DNA of 64,000 nucleotides from a virus. The DNA lies in the IMG/VR virus record IMGVR_UViG_3300035670_000026, positions 64,001 to 128,000 of that record; one strand, 5' to 3'. The notes beneath the pieces were generated by a model. That model worked only from the letters and a program-made list of their open reading frames with translations, did no database searches and was not told the DNA's origin. Each line of letters starts with the position of its first letter. The stretch's first letter is position 1. Positions 2,171 through 49,534 of this stretch are shown here, piece after piece. Both the position numbers and the translations under genes were made by a program.

Positions 2171-5100
2171 ATGGCTCAAGTAAGATTCCTAGACCAAGTT
2201 CCAGTTGGCGTATATAATGTAGATCCTACGGGTACCGGTGCTGGTACCATTGATATATACCAAAATGGTACACTAGTAAGCGCTAGTGTTCCATATATTA
2301 ATATCAGCGGTTCAGCTGAGGTTTTAGGATTTGCACCATTCGGTACAAATAATGGTGTTACAATATACGTTTCTGGAGTAGGATTTCCATTTTCAGGTTC
2401 AGCCGAAATTACAGGATCTTTAGTAATCTCAGGTTCTGAGACTTATCCTATTATAATTCAAACCCTTCCGGTTCAAGATATTGAGTACGTAGTAACGTAC
2501 AACCCAATAACAGGTACTTTAGGATATGTAAATGCTACTTCTGGAACAAGCGGTATTTCAGGAACATCAGGAGCTTCAGGACAATCAGGCACTTCAGGAA
2601 CAAGTGGTACAGCAGGTACTACAGGAACTGCGGGTAACTCAGGTAATTCTCAAACTTCAGGTACAAGCGGTACCTCAGGTACAAATGGTTCAAGTGGTAC
2701 AGAAGGTATCTCAGGAATAAGTGCAACTTCTGGCACTAGTGGTACTAGTGGTTCAACAGGTACTTCAGGAAATAGTGAAAATTCAGGAACTAGTGGAACG
2801 AGTGGTACAAGTGGTACTAATGGTTCTGCTGGTACTTCTGGTATAAGTGAAAATAGTGGTACTTCAGGTACTTCCGGTACAAGTGGAACTAATGGTTCAT
2901 TAGGTACATCAGGAGAAAGCCAAACATCAGGTACTTCAGGTACTTCTGGGACAGCAGGTTCTTCAGGAACTGCGGGTGAATCAGGAAATAGTAAAACATC
3001 AGGAACTAGCGGTACTAGCGGTACTAGCGGTACTAGCGGTACTAGTGGTACAAGTGGTACAAACGGTAGCGCAGGTACAGCTGGTATAAGTGAAACCTCA
3101 GGTACAAGTGGTACCTCAGGAACAAGCGGTACAAATGGTTCTTCAGGAACTGCGGGTGAATCAAGCATAAGTGAAACTTCAGGCACTTCAGGCACTTCAG
3201 GTACCTCAGGAACAGCAGGTTCATCTGGAACCGCTGGTGAATCAGGTATAAGTGAAACCTCAGGTACAAGTGGTACTTCAGGTACTAATGGTAGTGCAGG
3301 TACAGCAGGTGCTTCACAAACAAGTGGTACAAGTGGTACTTCAGGTACCTCAGGTACAAATGGTAGTTCAGGTACTTCAGGAGAAAGTAATGTAAGTGGT
3401 ACTTCAGGAACATCTGGAACCTCAGGTAGTACTGGTACTTCTGGTACTTCAGGTAATGATGGTACTTCTGGCATATCTAGTACTTCAGGTACTAGTGGAA
3501 CTTCAGGTACTAGTGGTACAAGTGGTACAACAGGTACTGCTGGTTTAGATGGATTTGATGGTGTAAGTGGTGCTAGTGGTTCTTCAGGTTCTTCAGGTAC
3601 TAGTGGAACTTCAGGTTCTGTAGGTACAGCAGGTACTTCAGGAGTATCACAAACAGCAGGTACATCTGGTACTTCAGGTACATCTGGTACCAATGGTACA
3701 GCCGGTACATCAGGAAATAGTCAAACTTCAGGTACAAGCGGAACATCAGGTTCTTCAGGTACTTCTGGAGAAGATGGTACAAGTGGTACATCTGGTATTT
3801 CAGCTACAAGTGGAACTTCAGGTACCAACGGTTCAAACGGTACAGCAGGAGCTGCTGGACAATCAGGAGCAAGCGCTACTTCAGGTACTAGTGGAACTTC
3901 AGGTAGTACAGGTACTTCAGGGTTAAGTGGAAATTCAGATTCTTCAGGTACTAGTGGTACATCAGGTACTTCTGGTACATCTGGTACTGCAGGTTCTGCT
4001 GGTACTGCAGGTACAGCAGGAAATAGTGAAACAGCAGGTACATCAGGTACTTCAGGTACAAGCGGAACTAACGGTTCAGCTGGTACATCAGGTAATAGTG
4101 AAACCTCAGGTACTTCAGGAACTAGTGGTACTTCAGGAACAAATGGTTCTGCAGGTACAGCAGGTGCTACTGGACAGTCAGGTGCAAGTGCAACAAGTGG
4201 TACATCAGGAACTAGCGGTTCTACAGGTACTTCTGGTTTAAGTGGAAATAGTGAAACCTCTGGTACAAGTGGTACATCAGGTACTTCTGGTACGAGTGGT
4301 ACAACAGGTTCATCAGGAACCGCTGGTGAGTCAGGTACTAGTGAAACCTCAGGTACTAGCGGTACTAGTGGTACTAGCGGAACAAATGGTTCTTCTGGTA
4401 CAGCTGGTATTTCTGGTAATAGTGAAACTTCAGGTACATCTGGTACTTCAGGTACAAGTGGAACCAACGGTTCAGCAGGTACAGCTGGAGTTGCAGGTCA
4501 ATCAGGTGCAAGCGCTACTTCAGGTACAAGTGGAACAAGTGGTTCTACAGGTACATCAGGTTTAGCAGGAGTTAGTGAAACTTCAGGCACTTCGGGTACA
4601 AGTGGAACTTCAGGTACATCAGGAACAACAGGTTCATCTGGAACAGTTGGTGAATCAGGTACAAGTGGCACTTCAGGTACTTCAGGTACTTCAGGCACTT
4701 CAGGCACTTCAGGCACTTCAGGTACAAACGGTTCATCAGGAACATCAGGCGAATCAGGTACTAGTGCAACTTCAGGTACATCAGGTACAAGCGGAACTAA
4801 TGGTTCATCAGGAACTGCCGGAGCTGCAGGTCAATCAGGTGCAAGTGCAACTAGTGGTACCTCAGGTACTTCAGGTAGTACTGGTACTTCAGGTTTAGCA
4901 GGCGAAAGCAAAACATCAGGTACATCAGGTACTTCAGGTACTTCAGGTACAAACGGTTCATCAGGAACAGCAGGCGAATCAGGAAATAGTGAAACTTCTG
5001 GTACAAGTGGTACTAGTGGTACTAGTGGTACTAGTGGTACAAACGGTTCTTCAGGAACGGCAGGTGCTTCTGGTAATAGTGAAACATCAGGAACAAGTGG

Positions 5101-21611: not shown

Positions 21612-21867
21612 GTATAGAGCTTCACTCTTTATCCAAATACATGAAATTGTATTTCATGGACAAGGAGGATACAGCTGGGATATAATTTATGACATGCCTA
21701 TTTGGTTGCGAAATTTTACATACAATAAAATAAAAGAATTTCACGAAAAGAAAAACACACCAAAAGACACAGTTCAAGAATCAATCAAAAATATGAAATC
21801 AGCTGGAGCTACAGCTAGTACAAAAATACAAGTTCCAACCTATGTTACAAAGGCATCTAAAAAATGA
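21583..21867 (+). CDS. gp51-like chaperone extension in the +1 frame (no suitable start codon; probable frameshift product)
   Basis: Not in the ORF track. Reads FFGLTPEYRASLFIQIHEIVFHGQGGYSWDIIYDMPIWLRNFTY...KASKK*. Bounded upstream by TAG at 21580-21582 and overlaps the T7 run at 21591-21597. Confidence 0.7.
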   Translation, partial: GLTFFGLTPEYRASLFIQIHEIVFHGQGGYSWDIIYDMPIWLRNFTYNKIKEFHEKKNTPKDTVQESIKNMKSAGATASTKIQVPTYVTKASKK

Positions 21868-21875
21868 TGCCTTTT
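21849..21875 (+). terminator. Terminator-like hairpin at the end of the +1-frame ORF
   Basis: AAAGGCATC-taaaaaat-GATGCCTTT followed by T. Confidence 0.6.
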
Positions 21876-21896
21876 AATATTTATAACAAAAACTAA

Positions 21897-27033: not shown

Positions 27034-29883
27034 ATGGCTAACATAGTAGGGGAAGGTTTTAATCCAATAATTATAAGTCAAATAAAACAACGACAAAAAA
27101 TCTATGGTGCTAGTGATAGAGATAATCAAATATTATCTTTTTTACAAGCTCGAACAGGTTGGTGTAAGATGGTTTCATCTGTTGATGTAACATCTCCAGT
27201 TAGAGGAATACCTTATAGTGGAACTGAATTAGCTTCAAGATTTGTTTTATTTAATGGAACTACAAATGAATCACCTACTAGAGGAGCCCAAGAAACTTAT
27301 CAAAGAGGTGGTATATGGCCTGGTGTAGGAGATTTTAATAATTATGCTTATGGTATGGGAGGTACAGCATTTGGTTTAAATCCAATGCCTGGTATTACTC
27401 AAGCTACTATCAAAACCGAAACTAGAGGTTCATTAAAAACAGCTACTATTAATATTAGAGCAAATAATAGAAATCAATTTGATATTATTGATGTTTTATA
27501 TTTGCGTTTAGGATATTCAATGTTATTAGAATGGGGTAATAGTTCATATTATGATAATAATAATGTTTATATAACTGATAATCCTCATAGTTTAGCAGAT
27601 GATTTTTTAACTGGTAAAGTAAAATACAATAATTATTATTCTAAAATATCTTCTAAAATAGAAGCATCTTGTGGAAACTACGATGCTATTATAGGAAAAG
27701 TAGTTAATTTTACTTGGACATTTACAAAAGAAGGAACTTATGATATTACTGTAACTTTAAGAAGTTTAGGTGATGTTATAGAATCATTAAAAACAAATGC
27801 TCTTTTACCTGGTGGCACCTCAGAAAATACATCAGGCACCTCAGGTACAGCAGGTACATCAGGTACTGCGGGGGTTGCCGGTCCTCCACCTGAACCAACC
27901 CCAGAAGATGTAATTAAATCTTTTGCAAATGTACATCAAATAGGAAAAAAACTTTACAACTTACAACAAAAACTTCAACCTTTAGGAGCAACTGAAGCTG
28001 GTATTTCTAGATTAACAGGAACTAATTCTTCGGATACTATTGCTTTTAGACAACAATATGAAGGAAGCCCAGCTCAATATTATGTTAGATTAGGATATTT
28101 CTTAGAATATATTCAAAATACTATCCTTCCATATATTGATACTCCTGATGTTCCTATTCAAAAAATAGATACTAATGTAGAGTCTAATATTATTTATTTA
28201 ATGGCTCGCCAAATTAGTACTAATCCTGGAATTTGTATTTTTAATAAAGTTTTTGATACTCCTAATGGATTTATAGAGTTTGCAGCAGGAACAAATAATT
28301 TTATAGTTTCAGCACCCAACGGTAAAAATCAATATGGTAAGATAATGAATGCATATTTTAATATGCAATATATTCTTACTCAAATGGATTCATTAAAAAA
28401 TGAAGATGGTAAAGTTCCATTGTATGATTTATTAAATTGTTTATGTCAAGGATGGAATAATGCAACTGGTAATTTTAATAAATTAGAACCTACTGTTGAT
28501 GCAGACGAAAGTATTATTAGATTTACAGATGAAGTTGTCCTCCCAGATAGAGATTCATGGTTAGGAAAACAAGGAAAATCAACAGAATTAGCTTCATTTG
28601 ATGTTTATGGATATTATTATGGGAAAGGTGATGATGGATATCTTAAAGGCCAATCCCATGCTGGTTTTATTAGAGATTTAAGTTTTAATACTACAATTCC
28701 ACCTAATTTAGCAACTATGATTACTATAGGTGCTACCTCAAATGGATATGTAGTAGGACAAGATTCAACAGCTTTATCTCGTATGAATGCTGGTTTAGAT
28801 GATAGATTTAAAAAAACTATTAAAACACACCAAGATACTAATACAACTGGAAGTGGTTCAATTAATGAAAATTATAAAGGTGCCCTAGAAGCATTTCAAG
28901 TATTTGCTCGTGATTTAGGTTCTTATAAAGGTACTGTAAAACCAAAATGGAACCAAGAAGCAATTACTAATTTTACTAATACTGCCGTTACATTTTACGA
29001 ATATGATCAAGCTAAACAATCATTAGAAGCTGCTGGATTAACTTCTGAAGAAGCTTCAGTATCAGCTCAGAAAAATGATTTTTCAATTTTGTCTACAAAA
29101 CCTGCTTCTCCAAACATTGGATTTTTACCATTTGATTTACAATTAACAATGGATGGACTTTCAGGAATGAAAGTTTACCAAAAATATGTAGCAGATTCTA
29201 GTTTTTTACCTTCAAACTATCCCACATCATTAGAATTTTTAATTAAAGGTATAACTAATAATATTCAAAATAATGAATGGACTACTACTTTAGAATCAAT
29301 TGCTGTACCTAAAAATCCATTTGGTTCTTCAATTGCTAAAGGTACTGTAGCAGCCGGTTCTGCAAGAGATACAAGTAGAGGTGCTGCTCCTACACCAACC
29401 GAATCTACACCAAACGCTGATAGATTAAGAACAATCTTAGCAAGTTTAGGGTACCGTGAAAAAGGTAGAGAATTATCTAACGGTGGAGATATTTCAAATG
29501 ATCTAGTAAATTATGCTGCTTCAGTATTTAGAGAAATTAAAAAACAATTTCCAAGTTTAATAATTACAGTAACTGGAGGTAATGATGCTTATCACCAAAG
29601 ATTATCTTATAAATCATCTCATACCTTAGGCCAAGGATTAGATTTTGTAATTTCTCCCCTAACAACAGCTAATAAAAATGCTGTTGATAAAATATTAGGT
29701 GGATTTGCAGCCGGTAACCAAAATAAAGTTGTTAGCTTTATTAATGAGTACGATTATCCATCATCAGCTGCAACTGCCGGTCATTTCCATATTAGAATAG
29801 GTGGTAAAATTGAAAGTAAAAGAATTGCTACATTTATAGCTCAAGCCGATAAAGGTCAATTAACAACATATCCAATAGTATAA
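27034..29883 (+). CDS. Baseplate hub protein with C-terminal M15-like zinc peptidase domain
   Basis: PMPGIT..GSLKTATINI..LYLRLGYSMLLEWG hub-like N-terminus; C-terminal SSHTLGQGLDF...GHFHIRI (H-X6-D...HXH). Confidence 0.65.
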   Translation: MANIVGEGFNPIIISQIKQRQKIYGASDRDNQILSFLQARTGWCKMVSSVDVTSPVRGIPYSGTELASRFVLFNGTTNESPTRGAQETYQRGGIWPGVGDFNNYAYGMGGTAFGLNPMPGITQATIKTETRGSLKTATINIRANNRNQFDIIDVLYLRLGYSMLLEWGNSSYYDNNNVYITDNPHSLADDFLTGKVKYNNYYSKISSKIEASCGNYDAIIGKVVNFTWTFTKEGTYDITVTLRSLGDVIESLKTNALLPGGTSENTSGTSGTAGTSGTAGVAGPPPEPTPEDVIKSFANVHQIGKKLYNLQQKLQPLGATEAGISRLTGTNSSDTIAFRQQYEGSPAQYYVRLGYFLEYIQNTILPYIDTPDVPIQKIDTNVESNIIYLMARQISTNPGICIFNKVFDTPNGFIEFAAGTNNFIVSAPNGKNQYGKIMNAYFNMQYILTQMDSLKNEDGKVPLYDLLNCLCQGWNNATGNFNKLEPTVDADESIIRFTDEVVLPDRDSWLGKQGKSTELASFDVYGYYYGKGDDGYLKGQSHAGFIRDLSFNTTIPPNLATMITIGATSNGYVVGQDSTALSRMNAGLDDRFKKTIKTHQDTNTTGSGSINENYKGALEAFQVFARDLGSYKGTVKPKWNQEAITNFTNTAVTFYEYDQAKQSLEAAGLTSEEASVSAQKNDFSILSTKPASPNIGFLPFDLQLTMDGLSGMKVYQKYVADSSFLPSNYPTSLEFLIKGITNNIQNNEWTTTLESIAVPKNPFGSSIAKGTVAAGSARDTSRGAAPTPTESTPNADRLRTILASLGYREKGRELSNGGDISNDLVNYAASVFREIKKQFPSLIITVTGGNDAYHQRLSYKSSHTLGQGLDFVISPLTTANKNAVDKILGGFAAGNQNKVVSFINEYDYPSSAATAGHFHIRIGGKIESKRIATFIAQADKGQLTTYPIV

Positions 29884-45149: not shown

Positions 45150-45434
45150 ATGAGTGATGGAATTACAGAAGCTCGTAGAGGTACTTATTGGAAAAACGAC
45201 AAATACGACAAAAGTATAATTAATTGGGAATTACATCAACAATTAAATAGTAAAAAATCAAAAATAGATAAAGATTTTAAACATATGCCTAACCAAAAAT
45301 GGCATAAAATTATAAGCTTTATCAAATCAGGAGTGCGTATCTTAGGATACGCTCTTCTCCCATTTAATTTGGTAGTTGCAACAATTGTACTTATATTTAG
45401 CGAAGTTATTGGAATTATAGAAGAATTAGTATGA
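45150..45434 (+). CDS. Hypothetical membrane protein
   Basis: Hydrophobic C-terminus ISFIKSGVRILGYALL...EVIGIIEELV. Confidence 0.65.
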   Translation: MSDGITEARRGTYWKNDKYDKSIINWELHQQLNSKKSKIDKDFKHMPNQKWHKIISFIKSGVRILGYALLPFNLVVATIVLIFSEVIGIIEELV

Positions 45435-45637
45435 TAAAAAGACACTACCGAAAATCACTTCCCCAACCTGAAATGTACATTATAGTAAATCAGGATGGAA
45501 AAGTATTTATTGGTTTAAAAGGTGGTTACCCTGAATATTCTTCAGATTGGTCTCAAGCCAAACCACTATTTATAGAGAACACAAAACATCTTTTAAGAGA
45601 AAAAGGAACAGAATTAATTAAAGAATCAGAATTATGA
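45431..45637 (+). CDS. Hypothetical protein
   Basis: Overlapping start/stop coupling with both neighbours. Confidence 0.65.
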   Translation: MIKRHYRKSLPQPEMYIIVNQDGKVFIGLKGGYPEYSSDWSQAKPLFIENTKHLLREKGTELIKESEL

Positions 45638-45882
45638 AACAACTATGGTATTTTTCGGCTCCCTGGTGTGGACCGTGTAAACAATTTGGTCCTACTATGG
45701 ACCGTGTATCCAACCAAGGTATCCCCGTTAATAAAGTAAATGTAGATTATGAACCAGATGCTACTACTAAATTTGGAATTAAAAGTGTCCCTACAGTTAT
45801 TTTAGTAGAAAACGGACAAGAAATAAAACGCTTTACAGGTGTAAAATCAGAACAAGACGTAATTAATTTTTATAATGGGTAG
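45634..45882 (+). CDS. trxA: Thioredoxin
   Basis: FSAPWCGPCK; GIKSVPT. Confidence 0.93.
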   Translation: MKQLWYFSAPWCGPCKQFGPTMDRVSNQGIPVNKVNVDYEPDATTKFGIKSVPTVILVENGQEIKRFTGVKSEQDVINFYNG

Positions 45883-46339
45883 TTTTAGATCAACAAAAAT
45901 ATTTGATGGTTATTCAACAGTATTTCGTCAATGGAAAGCTACAGATACCCATTGTCGTTTTTTACATGGTTACGGAGTAAGTTTAAAAGTATGGTTTGAA
46001 GGCGATCTTGATCACCGCAATTGGGTTTGGGACTTTGGGGGTATGAAACGTACTAAAGGTACCATTGATGGTATGAATCCTAAAGAATGGATGGATTATA
46101 TGCTTGATCATACTACAATTATAGCAGAAGACGATCCATATCTTTCTTATTTTCGTAACATGGATTCCGAAGGTATAATTCAATTACGAGTAATACCCAA
46201 TACAGGAGCAGAATGTTTTGCTCAATATTTTTATTACAAACTAAATACATTTATTCAAAAAGAAACAAATAAGCGTGTAAAAGTAGTTCAAGTTGAATTC
46301 CGTGAACACGAGAAAAATACAGCATTTTATAAAGGTTAA
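45875..46339 (+). CDS. queD: 6-carboxy-5,6,7,8-tetrahydropterin synthase
   Basis: HCRFLHGY; WVWDFGG; LDHT; GAECFA; EHEKNTA. Confidence 0.88.
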   Translation: MGSFRSTKIFDGYSTVFRQWKATDTHCRFLHGYGVSLKVWFEGDLDHRNWVWDFGGMKRTKGTIDGMNPKEWMDYMLDHTTIIAEDDPYLSYFRNMDSEGIIQLRVIPNTGAECFAQYFYYKLNTFIQKETNKRVKVVQVEFREHEKNTAFYKG

Positions 46340-46340
46340 T

Positions 46341-47123
46341 ATGGCATTAAAAAGAATTGAAGATTATAGTAAAAAGCTTCCAATTGTAGAGCTTTATACT
46401 TGCGTACAATCAGAAGGCAGTAGAGCAGGTCGTCCTACTGTTGCTGTACGCACAACAGGATGTACTCACCGTTGTTATTTCGGTGAAGGAGGATGGTGTG
46501 ACTCTTGGTACACTAGTATCCACCCAGAAAAAGGTAAATATTCATTTCAGGATATTGTAGACATTTATGATGCTCATCCTGAAATTACTGAAATGATGCT
46601 TACTGGAGGTTCTCCTACTATGCATCCAGCACTAGTAAATGAATTGACTCATTTTGCTCACGAAAGAGGAATTATTATTACTATTGAAACTGAAGGATCT
46701 CATTTCCTAGAAACTGATCATCCTATTGGTCTTATTAGTTTTAGTCCTAAATTTAACAATTCAGTTCCTGTTTTAGGAGTACTTACACCTCAAGGTTCAG
46801 TTACTGATCAAAAGATGATTGACAAACACAATAGTTTACGTTTAAATAAAGTAGCTATTAAACAATCAATGGAATATCATGCTGATTACCATATGAAAGT
46901 TGTAGTTAATCCTGTTGAAGACCCTGAAACTTGGAATGAAATCAAAACATTCTTGGATGAATTGGAAGTACCTAAAAATAAAATTTGGATTATGCCTCCT
47001 GGAGATAACCGACAAGAATTGATTCGAGTTTATCCTATGGTAATTCAATGGTGTACAGACAACTATTATAATTTTACAGGTCGTGAACACATCATTGCCT
47101 TTGATACAAAGCGTGAAGTTTAA
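46341..47123 (+). CDS. queE: 7-carboxy-7-deazaguanine synthase (radical SAM)
   Basis: ELYTCVQSEGSRAGRPTVAVRTTGCTHRC...WCDS; LTGGSP; TIETEGS; SFSPK. Start reassigned to ATG at 46341. Confidence 0.9.
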   Translation: MALKRIEDYSKKLPIVELYTCVQSEGSRAGRPTVAVRTTGCTHRCYFGEGGWCDSWYTSIHPEKGKYSFQDIVDIYDAHPEITEMMLTGGSPTMHPALVNELTHFAHERGIIITIETEGSHFLETDHPIGLISFSPKFNNSVPVLGVLTPQGSVTDQKMIDKHNSLRLNKVAIKQSMEYHADYHMKVVVNPVEDPETWNEIKTFLDELEVPKNKIWIMPPGDNRQELIRVYPMVIQWCTDNYYNFTGREHIIAFDTKREV

Positions 47124-47134
47124 TATTTATTTTT

Positions 47135-47647
47135 ATGGGTAGTAAACAAGTATTATTTACTGAATTAGAATTACAAAACAAAGTAGGCGAACTTGCTTAT
47201 AACATTAAAAAACAAAAACATGATTTTCCTCCCGTGTTTATATGCGTTTTAAACGGCGCATTTATGTTTTTTACGGATTTAGTGAAGCGAATGGATGAAT
47301 GCGAAATAGACTTTATACGCGCGAAATCATACGAGGGAATTACACAGAGTACAGTCAAAATTACTAAATCTATTGAAATTGATATTTCAAGAAAAGATGT
47401 TTATCTTGTAGATGATATTTACGATACAGGAGAAACAATGAAAGAACTTACTAACCACCTTAAATTATATAATCCTCGATCAATCACTCCAGTTACTTTA
47501 TTTAAACGTTGGAGTGCAAAACATCCCGATTTAATTTATGGATTTGAATTGTATGATGAGGCCTGGCTTGTAGGTTATGGTTTAGACAATGAAAAAGGTC
47601 TCCAACGAAATCTTAAACATATCCTTGGAATCCCAAGAGAAGATTAG
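47135..47647 (+). CDS. hpt: Hypoxanthine-guanine phosphoribosyltransferase-like protein
   Basis: CVLNGAFMFFTDL; KSY; PRPP loop VYLVDDIYDTGETM; WLVGYGLD...RNL. Confidence 0.9.
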   Translation: MGSKQVLFTELELQNKVGELAYNIKKQKHDFPPVFICVLNGAFMFFTDLVKRMDECEIDFIRAKSYEGITQSTVKITKSIEIDISRKDVYLVDDIYDTGETMKELTNHLKLYNPRSITPVTLFKRWSAKHPDLIYGFELYDEAWLVGYGLDNEKGLQRNLKHILGIPRED

Positions 47648-47653
47648 TATATT
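47625..47653 (+). promoter_or_regulatory. TTGG-N19-TATATT promoter
   Basis: Exact spacing, upstream of the DIP1984-like gene. Confidence 0.65.
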
Positions 47654-47670
47654 ATATAAAAATAAAAGTC

Positions 47671-48099
47671 ATGAATGTATCTCAAGCATTAAAGCAAAAA
47701 AACAAATTAACTGTTGAATTAAAAAAACAGTACCAAATTGCACAAAAATTTAATTCCCAAGAAGAAGGGAATATTAGACGTTATTCAGTGCAGGACGCAT
47801 TGGATAAAGCTGCCGAGTTAACTATGGAGTTAACTGACCTAAAAACCAAGATCCACTTGGCAAACGCTCCTGTATACGATAAGATCTTTCGTATGGCTGA
47901 GTTAAAAGGCCGTATCAAGGAATTAAGAAAAATTCCAACGGAAGAAGGAAAAGCTGAATCACGATACAGTTCAGTAGTATCTGTAAAAGAAGTGGAAATT
48001 AATATTACCCAACTTGATGAAATGGTCCAAACACTAGAAGCAAGAATTGAAGAAATTCAAGCTGAGTTGGACGTTCATAACGCAACAACCCAAATTTAA
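47671..48099 (+). CDS. DIP1984-like coiled-coil protein
   Basis: Pattern MNVSQAL...LKTKIHLAN...IEEIQAELDVHNATTQI resembles the DIP1984 family (recognised from memory). Confidence 0.6.
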   Translation: MNVSQALKQKNKLTVELKKQYQIAQKFNSQEEGNIRRYSVQDALDKAAELTMELTDLKTKIHLANAPVYDKIFRMAELKGRIKELRKIPTEEGKAESRYSSVVSVKEVEINITQLDEMVQTLEARIEEIQAELDVHNATTQI

Positions 48100-48101
48100 T
48101 T

Positions 48102-48296
48102 TGAGTAGGGAGTGATGATGAATTAATTTTTGATGTCTTACAATTCTACTATGAGCCACATAGCGGATAAGTGATGATGATAAGGTTTATCCAACATCAA
48201 AATTTAAAAACTCAAAACATCAATCCTCGCGCACTTCAATAAATTTAAACCTCTTTGAACAGGACTAAAATTATTGATTCTGACTCGCTCCCCTCA
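48102..48296 (+). ncRNA. Putative structured non-coding RNA (about 195 nt)
   Basis: End pairing GGGAGTG (48108-48114)/CGCTCCC (48286-48292); GAATTAAT (48120-48127)/ATTGATTC (48273-48280); TTTTGATGT (48128-48136)/ACATCAAAA (48194-48202); hairpins at 48149-48163 and 48165-48192; no credible ORF in the interval. Confidence 0.6.
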
Positions 48297-48303
48297 TTTT
48301 AAT

Positions 48304-48332
48304 TTGGATATTTTAAATATCCTTTATATATT
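48304..48332 (+). promoter_or_regulatory. TTGG-N19-TATATT promoter
   Basis: Exact spacing, upstream of folE. Confidence 0.65.
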
Positions 48333-48354
48333 AAAAACATAAAATAAATAAGTT

Positions 48355-49059
48355 ATGGAAAATATCGAAAATAAACGTCGTAAAAAACACGAAGACATTG
48401 AGTGTGTTCCTGTAGGTTATGCTAATGGAGTAGCAGCAGGTTTTCCTTTTACTGATAAAGAAAAGGAATCAATGATTGAAGAAGCAGCCGAAGCATTTGG
48501 CCAGTTTCTTGATGCACTAAAATGTGATTGGCGAAAGGATCCTAATTCAATGGAAACTCCTCGTCGCGTAGCCAAAGCATATGTAAATGATTTGTGGAAA
48601 GGTCGTTATAATAATTTTACTGAAATTACTTCATTTCCTTCAGATGGTTATGATGGAATTATTATTGAACGTAATATTCAACTTACGTCAATGTGTTCTC
48701 ACCATCACCAAACAATTCGTGGTGTAGTACATATTGGTTATGTAGCTGGAAACGAAGGTCAAGTAATTGGTTTGTCTAAATTAAATCGTATTGTAGAACA
48801 TTTTGGTCGTAGAGGTGCTATTCAAGAACAACTTACATCCGCTATTCACCAAGCAGTAGATAAAGTGTGTGAAGCTAATCGTGGTGTAATTGTAACTGTA
48901 GTTGCTACTCATAATTGTGTAAGTTGCAGAGGTATTAATCACCAAGGTGCTGCAATGGTAACTACTAAAGCATCAGGTGTGTTTATGGATAATAATAATC
49001 AAGCACGTAAAGAATTTTTTGATTCACTTAAAATTAATAATGGTCATGTCTCAATCTAA
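48355..49059 (+). CDS. folE: GTP cyclohydrolase I
   Basis: ETPRRVAKAY; SMCSHHH; IGLSKLNRIV; IQEQLT; ATHNCVSCRG. Confidence 0.95.
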   Translation: MENIENKRRKKHEDIECVPVGYANGVAAGFPFTDKEKESMIEEAAEAFGQFLDALKCDWRKDPNSMETPRRVAKAYVNDLWKGRYNNFTEITSFPSDGYDGIIIERNIQLTSMCSHHHQTIRGVVHIGYVAGNEGQVIGLSKLNRIVEHFGRRGAIQEQLTSAIHQAVDKVCEANRGVIVTVVATHNCVSCRGINHQGAAMVTTKASGVFMDNNNQARKEFFDSLKINNGHVSI

Positions 49060-49534
49060 GGAAAATTATGTCCCGTTTGTAAGCGAAGTTGAAGAATTTA
49101 ACGCTTTAATGAATAAACCCAATAACTATGAACCAACAATTCCAGAAAATAGAGCTGAATGGGAATTTGTTTATAACTTCATTCTCGAAGAACTTGAAGA
49201 ATATAAACAAGCTTGCGAACGTGGGGACATCGTGGAAGTTTTGGATGCGTTGTGTGATATTACTTATGTATCCCTTGGGAACGGTGCTATGCTTCATGGT
49301 CTTAAGGATAAAGTTTGGCCCGCTTATATGGAAGTACAGGCATCAAATTTATCAAAAGCTTGTTCTACACAAGAAGAGGCACAAGCGACTGTTGACTTAC
49401 GTTCCCGAGAGCAAGGCGAAGGATGTCACTATGAACAGGTTGCTGACAAGTATGTTGTATATCGTACTAGAGACCGTAAAGTAATGAAGTCTATCAATTA
49501 CTTTAAACCTAATCTTAAGCAGTTTTTTAAATAA
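49046..49534 (+). CDS. MazG-like (PRA-PH family) NTP pyrophosphohydrolase
   Basis: FILEELEEY...EVLDALCDITYV...EVQASNLSK...KVMKS. Start reassigned to ATG at 49046. Confidence 0.85.
   Translation: MSQSKENYVPFVSEVEEFNALMNKPNNYEPTIPENRAEWEFVYNFILEELEEYKQACERGDIVEVLDALCDITYVSLGNGAMLHGLKDKVWPAYMEVQASNLSKACSTQEEAQATVDLRSREQGEGCHYEQVADKYVVYRTRDRKVMKSINYFKPNLKQFFK

Follow-up and report, generated by a model that had tools for sequence, protein, structure and literature searches.

The stretch of DNA analysed here (hereafter the window; 64,000 nucleotides (nt), bases 64001-128000 of the 149.8-kb IMG/VR virus record IMGVR_UViG_3300035670_000026, which is estimated to be 92% complete) contains a conserved, structured RNA of ~200 nt at positions 48100-48300. 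The RNA lies directly behind, and on the same strand as, a gene (47671-48099) for a 142-aa helical protein that, judging from its structural model, we call a remote relative of the DIP1984 fold. Gene and RNA constitute one unit of inheritance, inseparable in every locus examined, and the self-contained gene-plus-RNA cassette that an earlier sequence-only reading of the window had described is borne out, as the RNA follows the gene whatever the flanking genes. We favour, with moderate confidence, the interpretation that the pair encodes an undescribed ribonucleoprotein (RNP), in which a multimer of the protein would read periodic UYAA units of its partner RNA.

Conservation and covariation of the RNA

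Via the protein we gathered first 13 and subsequently 80 related phage loci from the 252 that it matched, and in all loci gathered the gene is followed by a stretch of ~200-260 nt devoid of open reading frames (ORFs). The covariance model R1, built from the closest 11 sequences by RNAalifold on the close clade and subsequent covariance-model iteration, identified, in each of the 34 loci from the two nearer clades, exactly one full-length copy of the RNA, located immediately behind the gene and on its strand (E-values from 1e-55 to 8e-7). The model R2 reported weaker matches (E-values from 2e-5 to 0.08), in the same position and on the same strand, in 15 more distant loci. The sequence-only reading had expected conserved structure behind homologues of the gene, and the single copy in each of the 34 loci agrees with this expectation.

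In the alignment of these 34 sequences standard base pairs occupy 87.5% of the cells, as compared to 42-48% when the partner is slid by 1-3 columns, 25 of the 33 pairs change on both sides (10-16 in the slid controls), and the covariation score is 0.38 (0.08-0.10 in the slid controls); this covariation supports the structured RNA that had been proposed from one sequence. Compensatory changes are also visible in the raw sequences, independently of the fit to the model, and the closing helix reads GGGAG/CUCCC in the window, GAUGUG/CACAUC in locus L053 and GCCACUAU/AUAGUGGC in locus L066. The gap behind the gene folds better than its shuffled versions (z = -2.95 for the plus strand, -3.3 for the minus strand), and for every clade a rod formed by the ends of the RNA is predicted (median z = -3.3 over 66 unique loci), with its 5' strand starting 1-9 nt past the stop codon in nearly all of these loci.

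The identity of the RNA to three relatives (0.89, 0.70 and 0.66) is approximately equal to the nucleotide identity of the gene and exceeds the identity at third codon positions (0.80, 0.54 and 0.46), therefore the RNA sequence is under purifying selection. Its invariable co-orientation with the gene, its G-poor composition on that strand and the terminators that follow it in distant clades point to an RNA that acts from the plus strand; G.U pairs number 115 versus 63 A.C pairs.

The search of Rfam that the sequence-only reading had recommended matched no family in the region, even at E-values up to 10, and none at gathering score anywhere in the window, while a tRNA scan of the RNA element found no tRNA. 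At 28670-28819 of the window R2 gave a weak match (22 bits, E-value 0.02), which lies inside a 949-aa ORF (27034-29883); this candidate for a second copy was rejected as a chance match owing to its location within the ORF.

Linkage of the RNA to the gene

Sampling from the RNA side, with a 15-nt motif of the second clade, yielded 44 loci. A complete RNA is present in 19 of them, in each case preceded by the gene in the same orientation, with a distance of 69-74 nt from the stop codon to the motif; no complete RNA without the gene was found among these 19 copies. The remaining 25 loci showed no match to the gene: 24 also lack the RNA (the 15-mer occurs there by chance), and one (L134) possesses the RNA, truncated by the border of the retrieved sequence. 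Gene plus RNA qualify as the unit of inheritance because the gene precedes all 19 complete RNAs by a fixed distance.

The flanking genes differ between clades. Among 83 neighbours there are five calcineurin-like phosphoesterases, four phosphoribosyltransferases, three UDP-galactopyranose mutases and two RNA ligases, and folE is found downstream of the RNA in the closest clade only, its place being taken elsewhere by tRNA genes, small ORFs or genes on the opposite strand. The two RNA ligases are not a significant number, and RtcB was found neither in this phage nor in five metagenome-assembled genomes with relatives, nor among the scanned ORFs of >=90 aa around six bacterial DUF6847 loci (up to ~7 kb away, as far as the contig extended). 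A riboswitch or leader of folE (responding to pre-queuosine 1 (preQ1), tetrahydrofolate (THF) or another ligand) was considered and rejected, given the lack of an Rfam match, the terminator that follows the RNA and the variable identity of the downstream gene.

In two distant relatives (L091:2939-3150 and L101:2939-3136) the DIP1984-like gene and the RNA, which is kept, are separated by a small ORF that encodes paired-cysteine (zinc-ribbon-like) motifs. In others, tRNA genes directly follow the RNA (L017/L053, from ~3640 in L017, and L019, from ~3680). The recurrent nearness of the module to tRNA genes is a hint, and only a hint, at a connection with RNA or tRNA metabolism.

Anatomy of the RNA

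The RNA element starts 1-3 nt past the stop codon of the 142-aa gene and consists, together with the hairpin that follows it, of the following parts:

48100-48300, plus strand: the whole structured non-coding RNA, ~200 nt, matched at full length by both covariance models (R1, 220 bits; R2, 183 bits)
48102-48115, plus strand: closing helix P1, 5' strand (UGAG at 48102-05, a 2-nt bulge, and a GGAGUGA-type 8-mer at 48108-15)
48116-48119, plus strand: 5' half (UGAU) of a symmetric 4x4 internal loop, read from the sequence with the predicted helices
48120-48127, plus strand: helix P2, 5' strand GAAUUAAU, predicted to pair with 48273-80 (8 bp)
48130-48139, plus strand: inner rod extension, 5' side (UU at 48130-31, GUCUU at 48135-39; duplex prediction)
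48149-48163, plus strand: hairpin P3 (CUAUG, loop AGCCA, CAUAG; 48149-53/48159-63)
48166-48184, plus strand: GAU-rich single-stranded segment (GAU..GAUGAUGAU..), the best conserved part, which holds the second copy of AGUGAUGAUGA
48195-48250, plus strand: G-poor UYAA array of six units, starting at 48197, 48204, 48212, 48220, 48236 and 48245
48261-48270, plus strand: inner rod extension, 3' side (AGGAC at 48261-65, with GUCUU; AA at 48269-70, with UU)
48273-48280, plus strand: helix P2, 3' strand AUUGAUUC
48281-48284, plus strand: 3' half (UGAC) of the 4x4 internal loop, read from the sequence
48285-48296, plus strand: closing helix P1, 3' strand (UCGCUCCC at 48285-92, CUCA at 48293-96)
48306-48332, plus strand: AT-rich terminator-like hairpin and U-rich run (GGAUAU at 48306-11 with AUAUCC at 48317-22, an inverted repeat read from the sequence)

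The ends of the RNA had been said to pair with each other, and duplex prediction agrees: P1 (48102-05/48293-96 and 48108-15/48285-92) is followed by the 4x4 loop, the 8-bp P2 and further pairs up to 48139/48261. In helix 1, each of the eight counted pairs shows changes on both sides in one relative or another (90% of cells pair), and the same is true of all ten pairs of helix 2 in the family alignment and of all four counted pairs of P3 (96% of cells pair), the stem of which appears in relatives as CUG/CAG, CUAA/UUAG, CUGA/UCAG or CUUG/CAAG. In a blind column scan the covarying runs that ranked highest were P2, P3 and the upper part of P1, led by 48120-26/48274-80; the scan supported nothing beyond P1, P2 and P3 when used to look for extra helices or a UGAUG/CAUCA pseudoknot. 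Covariation partly supports the inner rod extension (columns 37-38/200-201). The GAU-rich segment, with the consensus GAU.A..GA..A.GAuaa, is near-invariant in the 34 sequences, and GAU-repeat segments are found in distant clades, too.

The NTYAA units previously reported for the 3' arm are genuine, with the TYAA starts one position after those given for the longer unit. The RNA has six TYAA units, whereas shuffled versions contain 1.8 +/- 1.2 (six were attained in 11 of 5000), and the tract with these units contains 4.4% G as compared to 18.9% for the window. Across the 66 unique relatives the spacing of UYAA peaks at 7-9 nt (156 observed versus ~11 expected), there is a second peak at twice this distance, and the commonest number of units is six. 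A conserved UCGCGCA at 48227-33 occupies one period of the array. This periodicity fits an oligomeric protein that would read the units. The 11-mer AGTGATGATGA, on the other hand, is indeed present in both of the copies that had been noticed (48111 and 48170), the second of them in the best-conserved segment of the RNA, but its duplication alone is near chance (three matches with <=1 mismatch versus 1.5 expected; 19 of 100 shuffles reach three).

The hairpin at 48306-48322 is too AT-rich for a consensus terminator scan; distant relatives carry a strong G+C-rich intrinsic terminator at the equivalent place, right after the 3' arm of the RNA. The promoters that had been placed at 47625 and 48304/5 find no support, as sigma-70-type matches are no commoner than in shuffles (4 versus 5.0 +/- 2.1). 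The second of them is doubtful also because the match overlaps the terminator-like hairpin, and it is better read as that hairpin.

The protein and the DIP1984/DUF6847 family

The AlphaFold2 model of the 142-aa protein (predicted local distance difference test, pLDDT, 93) comprises a helix (residues 3-27), a long helix (40-86), a beta-hairpin (93-106) and a third helix (112-139). Foldseek identified as the best, and the only convincing, match 3KDQ (rank 1-2; template modelling (TM) score 0.82/0.77, range 0.71-0.82; probability 1.0; next match with E-value 1.6), a Corynebacterium diphtheriae structure annotated as function-unknown, which we take to be DIP1984 itself, its PDB title carrying no locus name. 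On the sequence level, the protein aligns over its full length with the NCBIfam family DIP1984_fam (NF038048), yet with 22.1 bits versus a cut-off of 70; the Pfam search did not report PF20935, and a sequence search of solved structures with the 142-aa protein returned nothing. The comparison by hhalign with the DIP1984/DUF6847 family gave an in-register alignment with a probability of 43%, and DUF6847 members figure in the clusters closest to the protein in language-model features. The earlier designation of the protein as DIP1984-like is accordingly appropriate for the predicted fold (TM score 0.82 to 3KDQ), but the sequence remains below the cut-offs of both NF038048 and PF20935.

The invariant residues, K8, K10, N11, K58, H62, N65, Q130 and N137, to which the nearly invariant Y69 can be added, are mostly polar or aromatic. 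From the lengths of the three helices that bear them, we infer that these residues would converge on one site per subunit. The family is large, with 640 word-matched relatives and 1815 clusters at 50% identity. Phage T5 gave no match to NF038048 or to a profile of the phage protein, a result with which a remote homologue would still be compatible. DIP1984/DUF6847 (PF20935, NF038048, 3KDQ; members are often annotated as "septicolysin") has the same fold and length as those predicted for the phage protein, but the latter scores below the cut-offs, and the family has no assigned function, so that membership leaves the mechanism unexplained.

Among bacteria, bona fide DUF6847 genes are present in 2 of the 401 Bacteroidota genomes sampled and in 4 of 401 genomes sampled from the phylum to which a Polynucleobacter metagenome-assembled genome belongs. 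Behind each of the six bacterial DUF6847 genes that we inspected, 200-540 nt are free of ORFs, and this stretch opens with GGCGA(G/A):

L185:8891-9220, ORF-free 3' region
L123:5212-5560, ORF-free 3' region
L183:8535-8742, ORF-free 3' region
L184:8426-8643, ORF-free 3' region
L186:7930-8349, minus strand, ORF-free 3' region
L122:7094-7628, minus strand, ORF-free 3' region

The regions in L185 and L186, which are unrelated and differ in G+C content, have in common the hairpin GCGAGUG..CAAA..ACCCC/GGGGGUUGAAAA. The region in L123 contains a T-arm-like GUGGGUUCGAUCCCCAC, a CA-rich tract and then a terminator, and two tRNA genes (4469-4541 and 4605-4678) are located just upstream of the DUF6847 gene of this locus. 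Neither the phage RNA model nor Rfam matched any of the bacterial 3' regions. Taken as sequence features, the regions suggest that a 3' partner RNA may be a trait of the whole superfamily. Full-text searches of the literature on DIP1984, DUF6847 and PF20935 turned up nothing bearing on a gene-RNA pairing, and one directed at circular and non-coding RNAs of bacteriophages and RtcB yielded unrelated papers only; together with the lack of an Rfam match this upholds the earlier remark that no such system has been described, and as far as these libraries reach, both the RNA class and its pairing with the DIP1984-fold family are undescribed.

A candidate RNP and its alternatives

We propose that gene and RNA would act as a module of two parts that share the direction of transcription and end at a terminator. 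The protein may multimerise into a ring or a short filament in which each subunit takes up one UYAA unit (7-9 nt), in a reading mode that would be analogous to that of TRAP or HutP on evenly spaced triplets. The closing rod with its purine-rich symmetric loops could provide a stable, nuclease-resistant frame for the particle. A terminating ribosome would have to open the rod and, because the 5' strand of the rod starts 1-9 nt past the stop codon, synthesis of the protein is probably coupled to folding or processing of the RNA. As to the role of the particle, our best guess is that it might bind or titrate a host RNA-handling factor, or protect RNA, during infection.

The TRAP/trp leader and HutP/hut leader systems of Bacillus involve leader RNAs and control downstream genes by attenuation. 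The phage RNA resembles them in the evenly spaced units within an unstructured tract, which in the Bacillus systems are read by identical subunits arranged in a ring, six at 7-9 nt being near the HutP spacing; in contrast, it follows its gene and ends in a terminator, the folds of the proteins are unrelated, and for the phage we only infer the binding. Another comparison is offered by Ro60 (Rsr) and its Y RNAs, including bacterial YrlA/YrlB, which are structured RNAs of 100-200 nt with a long end stem interrupted by internal loops, encoded beside the gene of the partner protein in bacteria and phages. The 5' and 3' ends of the phage RNA likewise form a long closing stem, the RNA is encoded beside the gene of its presumed partner, and there are links to tRNA in both cases (with a T-arm-like hairpin in one bacterial DUF6847 3' region). 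However, no TROVE match was found in the phage genome or in the census of neighbours, the partner in the phage is a predicted small helical bundle whereas Ro is a HEAT-repeat ring, and the RNA has no Rfam match to Y RNA or Yrl and exhibits a periodic UYAA array that is missing from Y RNAs.

Several observations weigh against the RNP as we propose it. The pair counts come from a model-fitted alignment, a bias that favours structure, and RNAalifold predicted no pairs when given both clades in an ordinary MAFFT alignment. The pairing largely survives on the opposite strand (82.8% versus 87.5%). Finally, the tight placement of the RNA after the stop codon would suit equally well a cis-acting element of the 3' untranslated region, which stabilises the mRNA or lets the protein repress or time its own synthesis, with no separate RNP. 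Such an element would be expected to begin within a few nucleotides of the stop codon, as the rod does in nearly all loci (1-9 nt), never to occur without the gene, as is the case in the sampled loci, and to have no evident promoter of its own and a terminator behind it. We nonetheless regard it as unlikely, since the conservation of ~200 nt with a six-unit array and a near-invariant GAU-rich segment exceeds the needs of a stabiliser, the RNA is kept in L091 and L101 despite the small ORF after the gene, and the pairing between its ends is a feature known from free stable RNAs. Still less probable, in our opinion, is an independent trans-acting RNA (a regulator, sponge or decoy) that merely shares the transcription unit and engages host factors, rather than the phage protein, via its UYAA tract, which would pair with them or be bound or cut by them. 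Sponge RNAs resemble the G-poor, unstructured tract with repeated units that is present here, and the tRNA genes after the RNA in L017/L053 and L019 and the two upstream of a bacterial DUF6847 gene would be in keeping with such a role, but from strict co-inheritance with one protein family, over 40-100% protein identity and in varied surroundings, a direct functional tie is to be expected.

Two further interpretations were raised by the sequence-only reading, and the comparison with known systems speaks against both. A toxin-antitoxin pair of type III (as in ToxIN, CptIN and TenpIN), with a toxic protein and a neutralising repeat RNA, would likewise be a small gene and a repeat-bearing RNA in one cassette on mobile DNA. 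We consider it very improbable here: the protein is modelled as a helical bundle like 3KDQ and not as an endoribonuclease of the ToxN/AbiQ type, Pfam, PHROGs and PADLOC gave no toxin match and the defence library only weak coiled-coil matches, the units of 7-9 nt within a larger fold are no tandem direct repeats of ~34-36 nt, the RNA is downstream and not upstream of the gene, and the gene resides among nucleotide-metabolism genes of large phages of lytic type. As for a box C/D guide RNA with a kink-turn that directs 2'-O-methylation, as known from Archaea and eukaryotes, the ATGATGA (48115-48121) and CTGA (48280-48283) on which it was founded are present as claimed, and in the window UGAUGA does face CUGA by the terminal helix, with tandem G.A and A.G followed by U.U and G-C; there are even weak matches to CD-box models (18.6-19.4 bits, E-values 1.7-5.1). 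However, the gathering scores of these models are 47-50 bits, and equally weak matches are found inside neighbouring coding sequences. The loop, with the oppositions U.C, G.A, A.G and U.U, is a symmetric 4x4 one between regular helices and lacks the 3-nt bulge of a kink-turn, and the RNA has ~3x the usual archaeal length. Of 66 unique relatives only nine possess both RUGAUGA and CUGA (nine of the 34 from the close clades), CUGA being replaced by UUGA in L026, L027 and L030, and G.A by tandem A.A in subclade B2 (e.g. L044). No match to Fibrillarin (PF01269) or L7Ae (PF01248) was found in the 92%-complete phage genome, and we hold a guide RNA of this kind to be extremely improbable. The same applies, with hardly any credence on our part, to an element acting on the DNA level, i.e. 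an insertion with inverted repeats like a miniature inverted-repeat transposable element, flanked by a 9-bp target duplication, or an iteron origin. The 9-mer TTTAATTTG does flank the RNA (48095-48103 and 48298-48306), the ends do form an inverted repeat, and short units are repeated, yet the element has a single copy in the 149.8-kb record, the TTTAATTTG flank is absent from the close relatives L014-L016, the site behind the same gene is retained across deep divergence, and compensatory changes together with G.U pairs indicate selection on the RNA level. The flanking 9-mer might be a shared regulatory word.

Genomic context

Around the module the window is organised as follows:

45875-46339, plus strand: queD-like gene
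46293-47123, plus strand: radical-SAM queE-like gene
47135-47647, plus strand: phosphoribosyltransferase gene
47671-48099 (stop included), plus strand: ORF of the 142-aa helical protein, predicted DIP1984 fold (three helices and a beta-hairpin)
48100-48354: ORF-free gap of 255 nt between the 142-aa gene and folE
48355-49059, plus strand: folE (ATG at 48355), followed by a MazG-like gene and then PolB (both plus strand)

The order of a 142-aa gene and a non-coding stretch corresponds to the earlier description, there being no ORF between the stop of the former and the ATG of folE. The gap had also been called the longest non-coding one, which in a scan for ORFs of >=60 aa does not hold, as 48100-48354 ranks second in the window after 21612-21896. 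The statement would in effect be right if the latter stretch holds a small frame; by reading, an apparent open frame of ~70 codons is seen there, ending with TGA near 21866, probably a small gene.

The module is embedded in a block of 7-deazaguanine-type nucleotide genes (45431-49534: queD, queE, phosphoribosyltransferase, folE, MazG-like, then PolB). The block of the close relatives L124-L133 includes, in addition, genes for a non-specific endonuclease and for a thioredoxin, and in some cases the MazG-like gene gives way to a dCTP-deaminase-like one. The phage record also carries 26 tRNA genes in one cluster (G000:C1:3895-9439), ~100 kb from the module. The DNA of folE is 71% identical to folE of the Cellulophaga phage phiST and of Flavobacterium "immuto" phages, and because of these matches the host is probably a flavobacterium. 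The source samples of near-identical contigs are labelled as metagenomic DNA.

Implications

More speculatively than for the RNP as such, we consider it possible that the module belongs to a widespread and undescribed class of RNPs common to large phages and bacteria, of which it would be the phage branch and in which a multimer of a small helical protein would be assembled on a closed, possibly circularised scaffold RNA. With regard to a circular form, a metagenome scan returned only five contigs, of genomic appearance. In the infected cell such particles might influence the RNA metabolism of the host, e.g. in tRNA or RNA damage and repair, or titrate a host factor that binds or cuts RNA; we put this broader idea forward tentatively.

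For the protein family, which comprises 1815 clusters, the dedicated structured RNA is the first concrete handle on function, given that the related Pfam families are all DUFs and that the one structure solved so far has lacked an explanation since 2009. RNA biology gains a sizeable class of RNAs that is supported by covariation and absent from Rfam. For phage biology, if the proposal is true, it would mean that a protein-RNA particle is carried by many large phages of freshwater and other environments.

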